Below are positions 21,929 through 30,161 of a stretch of DNA of 64,000 nt, piece by piece. Each line of letters opens with the position of its first letter. The stretch's first letter is position 1. The notes below the pieces were generated by a model, which had not been told where the DNA came from, made no database searches, and saw only the letters and a program-made list of their open reading frames with translations. The translations under genes were made by a program, and so were the position numbers. This DNA is from Flavobacteriales bacterium (GTDB taxonomy: Bacteria; Bacteroidota; Bacteroidia; Palsa-965): assembly GCA_040377305.1 (NCBI GenBank), contig JBEIPA010000011.1, forward strand, positions 32,001 to 96,000, given 5' to 3'.

Positions 21929-23389
21929 ATGCACAAGGCTTCAAATATTCCTGAGAAATCGTTGATCAATGATGTCCACATGGACAGCGGGTTTGATGTC
22001 ATTGCTTCCGAATTGCAATGGGTATCCAATCGCGTCAACCGTTTGCTGAACTCGATTATTAATCCTGAAGAAGTATTTTCAGCCGAACCACTTCAGAATT
22101 TCGATTCTGATTCGAACTATGGAAAATTTCTCGTGAGCTGGAAGGCTGACGAACTCGAGCGAATGGCGATTGGTATTTGTTTTGCGCAACTTTATTTTCC
22201 GAGTGCGTTTGATGGATTCCTTCGCGTGTTCGGAAAAGGAGGAGCGCGTCATTCCAATGTGGGAGGTATCATCAAGGAGTCGAGTGTGCGGTTTTATCCA
22301 ACGGTGCGTACGCTTGCGTGGATCATGTCGGGGAATAATCCGCAGACCTATGCGCGTTATGTGAATCAACTTTCTTCCGGTCACCGTTTGTTTACAGAAG
22401 GAGTTTTACTTGTAAAAGAAAATCCGGATGAAAGCGCATTTGTAGAAATGGAAGTGAAGCTTAATGAGATTTACTTTCCCACTTTACTTGAGGGAGTGGA
22501 GCCAAGACTGGATGCCGAATCCGGATTTCCCGCTTCCCGCAATTACGCAAATCATAATATGTCGGATGTCGTGCTCGATGCAGAAACGCGCAAGGAGATG
22601 GAGGAGATTTATCTCTTTGCAAAACAGATTTCAAATCTGAACACGATTCCGGAGAAAAAAATGTACAAAGGATATTGTGTCTGCGTTTTTACCGGTGAGC
22701 CCGGAACAGGCAAAAGTTATTCGGCCGGCGCAATGGGAAATGAGTTGGGAATGCCGGTGTATACGGTGAACACTGCGCAGCTTGTGAGCAAGTACATCGG
22801 TGAAACTGAAAAGAACCTGGAACGCGTACTGAACCGTTTCAATAATAAAAACTGCATCTTGTTTTTCGACGAAGCTGAAGCCATCTTCAGCAAGCGAACG
22901 GAAGTAAAAGATTCACATGATCGCTATGCGAACCAGGAGCAATCATTTCTCCTTCAGAAAATGACGGAGTTCAACGGCATCATAATTCTGGCGACCAATG
23001 TGCAGGACATTCGTCAGCACATGGACAAAGCATTTCTGCGTCGCTTCTATCGCATCATCAATATTCCATTTCCGAATTACGCAGAGCGAAAACTGATCTG
23101 GGAGAAAACGTTAGGCGCATCGTTCACTTACGAGCCGGGACTTGTTGATCGTATGGCGCGGAATTATCAGTTGAGCGGAGGGAGTATTCATAACGTGGTT
23201 TCCGATGGTGTAATTAAAGCGCTTAGCATAAATTCCAGAGTAATCAATTTTGAAATGATGGAGCGCGGATTGATTTCAGAATTCCTCAAGACCGGAAGAA
23301 AGTGTGAAGTGATTTTGGACGAACAGGTTTATGTTGATGCAGCGCGGAGATTTGGACCCGGTTACGAAAAACGCACAATGATTGCTTAA
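21929..23389 (+). CDS. AAA+ ATPase, Afp15/Pvc15 (eCIS-associated) type
   Basis: Walker A GEPGTGKS, VSKYIGETEKNL, Walker B LFFDEAE, KRTEVKDSHDRYANQE, IILATN, DKAFLRRF; N-terminal helical extension. Confidence 0.85.
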   Translation: MHKASNIPEKSLINDVHMDSGFDVIASELQWVSNRVNRLLNSIINPEEVFSAEPLQNFDSDSNYGKFLVSWKADELERMAIGICFAQLYFPSAFDGFLRVFGKGGARHSNVGGIIKESSVRFYPTVRTLAWIMSGNNPQTYARYVNQLSSGHRLFTEGVLLVKENPDESAFVEMEVKLNEIYFPTLLEGVEPRLDAESGFPASRNYANHNMSDVVLDAETRKEMEEIYLFAKQISNLNTIPEKKMYKGYCVCVFTGEPGTGKSYSAGAMGNELGMPVYTVNTAQLVSKYIGETEKNLERVLNRFNNKNCILFFDEAEAIFSKRTEVKDSHDRYANQEQSFLLQKMTEFNGIIILATNVQDIRQHMDKAFLRRFYRIINIPFPNYAERKLIWEKTLGASFTYEPGLVDRMARNYQLSGGSIHNVVSDGVIKALSINSRVINFEMMERGLISEFLKTGRKCEVILDEQVYVDAARRFGPGYEKRTMIA

Positions 23390-23398
23390 GTTAATACC

Positions 23399-28944: not shown

Positions 28945-29063
28945 GGATCAATGAAGTTTACAATGTTTCTATCGACTGATAGTAGCGCCTTGTAAATGTG
29001 CATGTAAAGTTAGTTAACTTTCATTGCCAGAACCTCACAGCGCAAGAGACAAAAGTAGACCTA

Positions 29064-30161
29064 ATGCCAATCATTTCAATGAGATTCACTGTTCCGCTTT
29101 TTAATAAACAGAGATCCATATTCACCTGGATGTCTGCCATTGGCGTAGCTTCTGCGGTGGTTCAAACGTTTATTTTAATGAAGTATGTTTCTCTGGATTG
29201 GTGGCTTCTTCCCGTCATGTTCGTCACATCTTCAGTTGCTTTTCTTTTTTGCGCGATGACGATCAAAGTTTTTACCGGCAAAGAAAATCACGTCATGCTG
29301 CGCTACTTCATTGCAGTTATGCTGCTCAATTATTTAGTTACAAGACTGCTGAACCTGCCAACACTTCTCTACCTGGATCTTCTTGCACTGGGATACGGAG
29401 CGATTGTTTTGTTCGGACGCACTGGATGTTTCATGGTAGGTTGTTGTCATGGCAAACCAAATTCCTGGGGCGTTTCTTACACGCATGCGCACGTGAAGGA
29501 GGGCTTTACGGAATATTATTCAGGTGTGCGATTGTTTCCTGTTCAGCTTGCGGAAGCTTGCGGTTTATTGCTGATTCTCGTTGCATGCGTCGCAGTCTTG
29601 TTATCTGGTTTTCCTGAAGGAGCAGTATTCACTGTATTCATTAGTCTTTATGGTGTATTGCGTTTTTCACTTGAGTTTTTCAGAGGAGATCCTGCGCGTC
29701 CTTATTGGCTTTCTTTTTCCGAAGCGCAGTGGACGATTCTACTAGTCAACATCTTTTTATTATGTGGCGCACTGTTTAATTGGTTTCCGATAGGGATGTG
29801 GCAAACTGCAATCAGTTACGGAATATTCCTGGCGTTGGTTGTTTTCGGTTTCGCTCGCGTGTTGAATCCTCGTTTTCGTTTTAGCGAGCCAAATCATGTG
29901 AAAGAAATCATGACTTTCAGATCCGAGAACGTGGGCGGAAACATCCGGGTGCTCACCACTTCGCAAGGATTAAATATTTCCGGCGTTCAGGTAGGTAATG
30001 AAACTCAATACACCTTGTCGCGCAACAAGAAGCAATTATCGCAAGACGACATTTTTCGATTGGCAGAAATACTTCAGTTACGTCATCACGAATCAAAGCC
30101 GGAAATTCATTCTCGGGACAATGGTGTATATCAGGTTGTTTTCAGGAAGAGTGCTGTTTGA
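29064..30161 (+). CDS. Prolipoprotein diacylglyceryl transferase (Lgt)-like protein, divergent
   Basis: Multi-TM; GRTGCFMVGCCHG, FPVQLAEA and YGVLRFSLEFFRGD correspond to Lgt motifs; extra soluble C-terminal tail. Start uncertain (29064 or 29079). Confidence 0.8.
   Translation: MPIISMRFTVPLFNKQRSIFTWMSAIGVASAVVQTFILMKYVSLDWWLLPVMFVTSSVAFLFCAMTIKVFTGKENHVMLRYFIAVMLLNYLVTRLLNLPTLLYLDLLALGYGAIVLFGRTGCFMVGCCHGKPNSWGVSYTHAHVKEGFTEYYSGVRLFPVQLAEACGLLLILVACVAVLLSGFPEGAVFTVFISLYGVLRFSLEFFRGDPARPYWLSFSEAQWTILLVNIFLLCGALFNWFPIGMWQTAISYGIFLALVVFGFARVLNPRFRFSEPNHVKEIMTFRSENVGGNIRVLTTSQGLNISGVQVGNETQYTLSRNKKQLSQDDIFRLAEILQLRHHESKPEIHSRDNGVYQVVFRKSAV

Follow-up and report, generated by a model that had tools for sequence, protein, structure and literature searches.

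The closest described relatives of the locus analyzed here are the DUF4157 effectors of extracellular contractile injection systems (eCIS) and of the Photorhabdus virulence cassettes (PVC), such as Cgo1 and Cgo2 of AlgoCIS, in which a leader is followed by an HExxH-Q-E core and a variable toxin, with an AAA ATPase gene adjacent and eCIS genes in the genome (PMC3482391, PMC8213781, PMC8894135); the accounts of these systems consulted here name neither lipidation nor a tie to Lgt. The window, by which we mean the whole stretch of 64,000 nucleotides (nt) analyzed (positions 32,001 to 96,000 of contig JBEIPA010000011.1, here C10, of the Flavobacteriales bacterium assembly GCA_040377305.1), encodes an effector of this kind that differs from other eCIS DUF4157 proteins in an extra N-terminal domain and a linker ending QR-Cys, both travelling with an Lgt paralogue that we call LGTL, and in a cassette unlinked from the structural locus. 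LGTL and the lipoprotein diacylglyceryl transferase Lgt (PF01790; 5AZB) are alike in their fold over LGTL residues 1-241, in an Arg/Glu/Tyr network and in a Cys acceptor with a flexible tether, which for LGTL is predicted; LGTL differs in being a non-housekeeping paralogue with an extra transmembrane helix (TM8), a C-terminal domain of around 95 amino acids (aa) and a reversed Lys plus Arg (K+R) bias, and its predicted substrate in having no signal peptide, an internal motif and Arg at position -1. Dedicated, co-encoded enzymes that lipidate a toxin in the cytoplasm before export are known in HlyC and CyaC, the acyltransferases of RTX toxins, which LGTL resembles in this respect; these are soluble lysine acyltransferases dependent on acyl carrier protein and linked to type I secretion, whereas LGTL has a membrane Lgt fold, a predicted Cys acceptor and a presumed connection with contractile injection. 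We consider it moderately probable that the window holds a satellite cassette in which an inverted LGTL likely diacylglycerylates Cys333 of the effector, the toxin then being loaded into the eCIS encoded on contigs C5 and C24 of the same genome and released lipid-anchored.

Samples of genomes were searched in pairs, with the LGTL alignment and with an alignment of the DUF4157 core plus linker. Numbers of DUF4157-positive, LGTL-positive and full-linker genomes were 21, 4, and 4 in the own order of the bacterium (35 genomes), 66, 8, and 8 in the class of a Pyrinomonadaceae record (151 genomes), 89, 1, and 1 in the family of a Calothrix record (151 genomes), 41, 2, and 2 in the class of an Ardenticatenaceae record (171 genomes), and 21, 0, and 0 in the own class (301 genomes, the 21 being new DUF4157-positive genomes). 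Across the 238 DUF4157-positive genomes, the full Cys-linker was found in 15 of 15 with LGTL vs. 0 of 223 without it, a count against which it must be held that its positive side is partly circular (LGTL loci supplied the sequences of the linker profile), that 4 of the 15 positives were sample centres picked for having LGTL, and that kin are not independent. In each sample the linker-positive genomes were exactly the LGTL-positive ones; full-linker matches scored at least 159 bits and no match in an LGTL-negative genome exceeded 124, with E-value thresholds that varied between samples and with many metagenome-assembled genomes among those searched. Tails of control loci, read directly without the profile, contained the motif in 0 of 36 cases. 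Among the LGTL-negative genomes one is unpublished (G008), two gave partial LGTL-profile matches that correspond to canonical-type Lgts with K/R-rich loops (G429 and G463), and one with a partial match of 112 bits was scored negative without inspection (G199). Where LGTL had no DUF4157 gene within 10 kb, the Cys class was present elsewhere in four of five such genomes, on other contigs in at least one. Altogether, 21 of the 23 LGTL genomes examined carry the Cys class; the two that do not, and which also count against the association, are G014, in which LGTL is truncated and DUF4157 was not found, and G635, whose LGTL is close to the end of a contig. The link between LGTL and this class of effectors is strongly supported.

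The same association was evident at the level of loci. LGTL homologues numbered 284 among 7,997 scored candidates, 118 of which were aligned, and in a profile search at least 150 clusters (50% identity) exceeded 397 bits. Their record titles name Bacteroidota, Acidobacteriota, Chloroflexota, Cyanobacteria, Proteobacteria, Actinomycetota, and others; beyond these titles, the taxonomic placement of the sampled groups is what we presume it to be. Neighbourhoods were fetched for the 80 best loci each from genomes (192 in total) and metagenomes (371 in total), and for four relatives; many of them are short contigs, those from metagenomes include near-duplicates, and L032 is absent from the locus counts owing to ORF pruning. 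A DUF4157 gene lay inside the fetched flank of 125 of 165 LGTL loci, far beyond chance, so that the association between Lgt-like homologues and DUF4157 proposed from the window alone is borne out. Viral contigs gave only two matches of 23 residues, which were not used. The elements of the cassette in the window are the following.

21929..23389, plus strand: AAA ATPase, Afp15/Pvc15-like, 486 aa, likely cargo loader (PF00004, E 1e-24; GEPGTGKS, FFDEAE and DRYANQE in the translation)
23399..25888, plus strand: DUF4157 effector of the Cys-linker class, 829 aa (PF13699 at residues 199-275, HELAH)
23582..23974, plus strand: helical N-terminal domain specific to the class, residues about 62-192, with a G-C-P motif (from class comparison)
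23993..24223, plus strand: DUF4157/eCIS-core zincin-like peptidase domain (H264-E265-x-x-H268, Q271 and E291 intact)
24362..24397, plus strand: internal lipobox-like motif PRLKSGLQVQR-C333, predicted lipid acceptor and cleavage site (from class conservation)
24854..25885, plus strand: C-terminal toxin domain, residues 486-829, Lipocone/TelC-like, predicted lipid-carrier phosphatase (AlphaFold2 model, weak structural match)
25892..26509, plus strand: lipoprotein, 205 aa, likely cognate immunity protein (signal ends ILSC)
26606..27826, plus strand: WG-repeat lipoprotein, 406 aa, associated with the cassette (PF14903, 10 repeats)
27881..28369, plus strand: small membrane protein, 162 aa, without Pfam match
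28366..28944, minus strand: lipoprotein-like ORF, 192 aa (from the ORF list)
29079..30161, plus strand: LGTL, eCIS-associated Lgt paralogue, 360 aa from the database start (partial PF01790 match, E 1.8e-18)

The AlphaFold2 (AF2) model of LGTL (pLDDT 94) had E. coli Lgt as its top structural match over residues 1-241 (5azb; Z 17.3, rmsd 3.3, 224 residues aligned by VIA; Foldseek E 8e-5), the runner-up structure entry reaching Z 7.1, and a sequence search of the PDB with LGTL alone returned no match. Beyond the Lgt fold LGTL adds the eighth helix and an alpha/beta domain whose best structural match had Z 6.9 (2qzi). Residues R114, E159, Y191, R195, E199, and R202, together with G113, G116, and G125, were invariant or at least 90% conserved among 118 LGTL sequences and correspond, in a mapping based on a weak HMM alignment (E 0.056) and motif order, to R143, E202, Y235, R239, E243, and R246, and to G142, G145, and G154 of the E. 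coli enzyme. The six non-glycine residues form the lipid-binding catalytic network of Lgt (PMC4728403, PMC8689077). LGTL scored 34.6 bits with the housekeeping Lgt equivalog TIGR00544, below its cut-off of 118.9, and formed a 100/100 clade on a branch of 3.0 substitutions/site in a 42-row tree. A canonical-type lgt is present on contig C19 of this genome, and all 10 further LGTL genomes that were checked keep a canonical lgt as well. LGTL is a non-housekeeping Lgt paralogue, and the suggestion of the sequence-only reading that it is a dedicated enzyme held when the genome was searched.

Less clear is the counterpart of His103, the general base (HGGL) of Lgt. Near this site, at the start of TM3, the LGTL family has YYHH, and a His was found in the equivalent window in 127 of 136 further representatives. 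The clade of the window protein (14 of 118) has LRYF there, with the His four residues earlier (H71/R75), a point that speaks against transfer activity, and several canonical Lgts carry Tyr at the His103 position. As a separate observation, this holds for the housekeeping-type Lgt of the same genome (C19:150455-151717, GLTMYGG), and for acidobacterial Lgts likewise. LGTL also has an invariant Cys/His cluster (C117/C122/C123/H124) and Cys at the positions of N146 and E151, and a gene for a CxxCxxCC metal-binding domain (PF03692) was fused to LGTL or located nearby in 13 of 165 loci. These features, with the doubtful His103 equivalence in the window's clade, would suit a membrane receptor or chaperone for the motif, or an enzyme of another modification such as thioester acylation or a metal-dependent reaction of the Cys/His cluster with the CxxCxxCC partner. 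We consider this unlikely, as the full phosphatidylglycerol-binding Arg/Glu/Tyr network is retained and both Tyr at the His103 site and the C-x4-CC motif occur in canonical-type Lgts of normal topology; two close ones share this motif with LGTL yet keep K/R-rich loops.

Canonical Lgt has its active site facing the periplasm (PMC4728403), out of reach for a cytoplasmic cargo that has no signal. The enzyme is described as acting on substrates with signal peptides. Over the three loops on the side away from the active site, K+R averaged 10.2 (8-13) in 10 canonical Lgts, whereas the means were 1.9 (0-5) in 118 LGTL and 2.1 (0-5) in 136 of 146 further representatives, all but 6 of 16 canonical Lgts and 10 of 146 LGTL representatives having the regex anchors on which the count depends. 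On the active-site side, LGTL had 2.8 K+R at the N-terminus and 4.7 after TM8. Because the positive-inside signature is lost and an eighth helix is gained, LGTL is predicted to adopt an N-in/C-in topology that puts both the C-terminal domain and the catalytic cleft on the cytoplasmic side, and such an inversion would allow it to reach a substrate without signal peptide. Fusions of LGTL with the CxxCxxCC domain at either terminus (L036, L039, L070, L105, L110, and L148; P0143, P0151, and P0260) and with DUF4157 at the C-terminus (P0242) fit both ends of LGTL being cytoplasmic, the cytoplasmic location of the fused domain being itself assumed. A cytoplasm-facing LGTL and diacylglyceryl transfer to Cys333, taken jointly, appear fairly probable to us, and the lipidation of the effector that had been suggested beforehand is rated likely. 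The opposite would be an LGTL of ordinary topology that lipidates periplasmic immunity lipoproteins, the Cys of the effector being a coincidental hitch-hiker. Three lipoprotein-like ORFs do lie between effector and LGTL in the window, but the signal peptides of these lipoproteins are normal and the genome also has a canonical Lgt; moreover, many LGTL loci have no intervening gene, a crude lipobox pattern matched just 11 of the 59 genes that follow Cys-class effectors, and the K+R pattern is reversed. This explanation is very improbable.

The DUF4157 proteins encoded beside LGTL share a common architecture, with a variable N-terminal leader, the class-specific domain, DUF4157, an amphipathic linker ending QR-C and a variable toxin. 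The core is followed by the linker LE.DAD.SA..A...LW.G....PRL[RK]SGL.LQR-C, whose Cys is Cys333 in the window protein, and from there on the sequence varies. The motif was present in 100 of 108 DUF4157 genes nearest upstream and at least one bearer in 110 of 124 loci; in 109 of these 110 the nearest Cys-linker gene was on the strand of LGTL, at a median gap of 82 nt. Among motif-bearing members, whose selection used a regex covering positions -6 to 0, conservation was 85% for P-11, 96% for G-6, 98% for L-5, 91% for L-3, and 91% for R-1, and HExxH-Q-E was invariant in 98 class members. The class-specific N-terminal domain occurred in 123 of 130 Cys-linker proteins plus three missed by the regex, in 0 of 31 Cys-less DUF4157 proteins of LGTL loci, and gave no match in loci from LGTL-negative genomes, which makes it a candidate adaptor for LGTL. 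The residues after the Cys are rich in G, S, K, A, and P, resembling lipoprotein tethers. Beyond them, 104 post-Cys domains fell into 65 families, indicating a constant chassis on which the toxin is swapped; 50 of the families had no Pfam match. Among those with matches we noted transglutaminases, M35, M91 and C15 peptidases, an ATLF-type metallopeptidase, SLT, 3D, and EndoU (for instance, L041:5841-6473). The window effector is the sole PF13699 match of its genome and had neither a signal peptide nor a transmembrane segment (maximum Kyte-Doolittle hydropathy KD19 of 1.37). Tat export was considered for this protein and ruled out, no hydrophobic segment following its KRRRR.

The canonical lipobox is an N-terminal signal with a hydrophobic helix and [LV][ASTVI][GAS]C (PMC8689077). 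The Cys333 motif fails as a canonical lipoprotein signal, being internal and without hydrophobicity of transmembrane grade, and across the class the departure of L-Q-R-C from the small residue at -1, together with the missing hydrophobic helix (median maximum KD15 of 0.82), weighs against its being a lipid acceptor. Among the 65 post-Cys representatives, 2 match EndoU, a predicted nuclease that would gain nothing obvious from an anchor, and this too counts against the proposed mechanism. Such cargoes would be accounted for if lipidation served the producer instead, the toxin being tethered at the inner membrane on its cytoplasmic side for staging near a docked contractile injection system or for safe storage, and then cut downstream of the Cys for lipid-free delivery. 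This, the main rival of the proposed mechanism, is compatible with the same co-occurrence and topology data and requires no threading of a lipid through the tube. We nevertheless hold it to be rather unlikely, since conservation ends at the Cys with the tether-like stretch after it. Most Cys-less DUF4157 tails (49 of 61) also contain a [LIVM][QS]R motif, which suggests cleavage ahead of the Cys.

The neighbourhoods connected LGTL clearly with eCIS. Of the genome loci, 59 were long (15 kb or more); in 27 of these the flank held core structural genes, and 18 more had tape-measure, Tail_P2_I or DUF6519 genes, giving eCIS structural genes within 10 kb in 45 loci and none in 14. A recurring order was sheath-tube-Pvc16-ATPase-DUF4157-LGTL-DUF4157-CIS_tube-spike-PAAR-gp25-baseplate, LGTL being often placed between the ATPase and the tube-initiator genes. 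The ATPase was present in 33 of the 59 loci, so that it was ruled out as an obligate part of the chassis; of the conserved chassis envisaged by the sequence-only reading, the N-half of the effector (residues about 62-333) around swappable toxin and immunity genes stood, and the ATPase did not. Cys333 as acceptor motif, the predicted inversion of LGTL and the TelC-like toxin had not been part of that reading. In the genome of the window (assembly completeness 99.99%), the genes searched for (tube, sheath, baseplate J, and VgrG) gave matches on C5, C15, and C24 and none on C10. In Pfam terms, C5 carries two tubes, CIS_tube, VgrG, gp25, baseplate J, and a tape measure, and C24 a sheath, Pvc16, and an AAA ATPase. 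The window locus is therefore a satellite eCIS effector cassette with structural genes on other contigs: the reported absence of sheath, tube, baseplate and spike genes is true of the window and of C10 and does not extend to the genome. The earlier idea of a distinct needle-less polymorphic-toxin system was not upheld, while its alternative, that the effector is loaded in trans onto an eCIS encoded elsewhere, is supported. In the needle-less version, lipidated effectors would leave in membrane fragments or vesicles upon lysis, independently of a contractile particle; a lipidated protein is well suited to carriage by membranes, and neither the window nor the 14 long loci mentioned show a structural gene. 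Against this, the other 45 long loci do, and tube genes were found in this genome and in G006, G026, G033, and G633, the sole tube-less relative being one that is also without DUF4157 and has a truncated LGTL. We regard delivery of that type as improbable.

Some further observations concern these neighbourhoods. The tube-less relative, G014, in which genome searches turned up no DUF4157 or tube gene, holds its truncated LGTL and a WG-repeat gene at the end of a contig (L181, G014:C32), likely a decaying relic. Close to LGTL, 9 loci have a fusion gene of a GT2 glycosyltransferase and a methyltransferase, and 12 have a ParA-like gene (L016, L020, L097, and others), possibly as further genes for modifying or positioning cargo. 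Four Afp15-like ATPases are encoded in the genome of the window, the window copy, which was matched by a profile that labels Pvc16-adjacent eCIS ATPases, and paralogues on C24 (two) and C1; in G006 the window ATPase has a copy of 82% identity at the equivalent position. The regions C24:7784-22744 and C1:9604-14951 are additional Afp15-like ATPase cassettes with putative effectors that have no DUF4157, one of them a 1684-aa protein with a Tox-PAAR-like domain; several effectors of C24 precede lipoprotein-like genes, and two C24 proteins begin with a similar Q-rich leader bearing QPW[DE], a possible loading signal. The tube gene (gp19) of C15 (C15:15125-15586) stands alone amid housekeeping genes.

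The C-terminal toxin domain of the window effector (AF2 model, pLDDT 85) gave no Pfam match, no Foldseek match under E 0.001 and no sequence match. In the fold search, TelC (5ukh) ranked first of 48,161 chains with Z 6.5 (rmsd 5.5, 207 residues aligned, 11% identity), followed by Z 5.1. The domain recurs in 21 other proteins, many of them on Cys-less DUF4157 carriers, and H593, E631, D638, N673, D677, and R723 were invariant in 19 homologues. In the Lipocone pattern, a four-helix cone bears His on helix 2, Glu on helix 3, and Asp on helix 4 (PMC12419801). The invariant His/Glu/Asp/Asn-Asp/Arg of the toxin resemble this pattern, which had been suspected before the wide fold search, and the likeness to TelC and the Lipocone superfamily (5UKH; PMC12419801, PMC6193138) comprises the top whole-domain structural match, His/Glu/Asp/Asp-Asn on successive helices, a conserved Arg in a C-terminal extension and a membrane-anchored immunity partner. 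The window toxin differs from TelC in its low identity and in being carried by DUF4157 and not by the LXG of the type VII secretion system. It tells against a TelC-like function that a Z of 6.5 is within the range that may be due to chance (VIA) and that Asn673 occupies the inferred position of the helix-4 Asp. The ESM Atlas gave no match for the window toxin protein and, for one homologue, a lead-level match to YkzU (0.88). In G576, a genome without LGTL, a Cys-less carrier bears the same toxin domain, and the next gene encodes a homologue of the 205-aa lipoprotein (28% over 165 aa, E 1e-15); for this reason the latter is likely the cognate immunity protein.

As for the remaining genes of the window, the ATPase motifs, the spacing of 9 nt between the ATPase and DUF4157 genes, the 829-aa HELAH protein, the lipoprotein and membrane ORFs and the plus-strand Lgt homologue were as initially described, except that the last lipoprotein-like ORF is on the minus strand. 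This 192-aa ORF, which had no homologue among the fetched loci and is probably an insertion, is divergent from LGTL, the two starts being 134 nt apart, and therefore the cassette is probably not a single transcript here. Homologues of the WG-repeat lipoprotein adjoin LGTL in L179, L180, L181, and L019, and one of the 162-aa membrane protein sits directly upstream of LGTL in L013 (E 7e-14). The Pfam scan covered all but 14 of the 44 planned ORFs of the window and found sorting domains of the type IX secretion system in window proteins, suggestive of a Bacteroidota genome. At 6563-11550 two long plus-strand ORFs, of 953 aa and, with an fn3 match, 804 aa, overlap by around 290 nt in different frames, which denotes either a frameshift or a start lying further downstream. 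Next to this pair are a gene for a collagen-repeat protein (12698-14263) and a weak SIR2-like gene (11565-12554).

In the mechanism that we propose, LGTL, predicted to be inverted, would recognize the chassis and move diacylglyceryl from phosphatidylglycerol to Cys333. The adjacent Afp15-like ATPase would then draw the cargo off the membrane and thread it into the tube in trans; Pvc15 and Alg15 load cargo via N-terminal signals (PMC11495950; 10.64898/2026.05.27.728243). During or after delivery DUF4157, for which autoproteolysis has been proposed (PMC3482391), would cut its own protein at QR|C in place of Lsp, leaving an N-terminal lipid-Cys. The lipid anchor would keep the TelC-like domain at the target membrane near lipid carriers, and the downstream lipoprotein may shield kin; TelC itself is a lipid II phosphatase that works outside the cytoplasm (PMC6193138, PMC12419801). 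For the whole chain of inversion, lipidation, loading, self-cleavage and target anchoring we see roughly even chances. It has to be set against the chain that a diacylated cargo must quit the bilayer and enter a narrow tube, that the toxicity of Cgo1 is independent of its HExxH motifs (PMC8894135), that DUF4157 is dispensable for loading (10.64898/2026.05.27.728243), and that we infer lipidation, cleavage and loading from sequences and models.

Full-text literature searches, with subscription papers and bioRxiv supplements outside their scope, retrieved no paper tying Lgt to eCIS or DUF4157 or describing an inverted Lgt. The available text of one article with a co-mention concerns canonical Lgt only (PMC13721041), and term searches of the available text of PMC8213781, PMC11297309, PMC12210884, and PMC3482391 found no mention of Lgt. 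In the accessible part of the supplement of PMC8213781 (12 of 15 files), pfam01790 (LGT) was scored as not enriched, with an odds ratio of 0.35; domain-enrichment surveys probably missed LGTL because housekeeping lgt swamps the Pfam count. The cassette is assembled from known parts, with a specific, predicted mechanism.

In a wider sense, the chances seem to us evenly balanced that LGTL and its effectors represent a second, cytoplasmic lipoprotein pathway, in which an inverted Lgt and a self-cleaving DUF4157 would take the places of Lgt and Lsp, lipoproteins free of signal peptides would be delivered ready-anchored into the envelope of another cell by a contractile injection system, and QR|X would be a general DUF4157 cut site. 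The role of DUF4157 in eCIS becomes testable, with QR|X as the candidate cut site and an N-terminal lipid-Cys as the product. If the predictions are true, an Lgt that faces the cytoplasm and uses an internal acceptor motif would constitute a new route of post-translational modification, and LGTL would be a natural case of a whole membrane enzyme inverting its topology.

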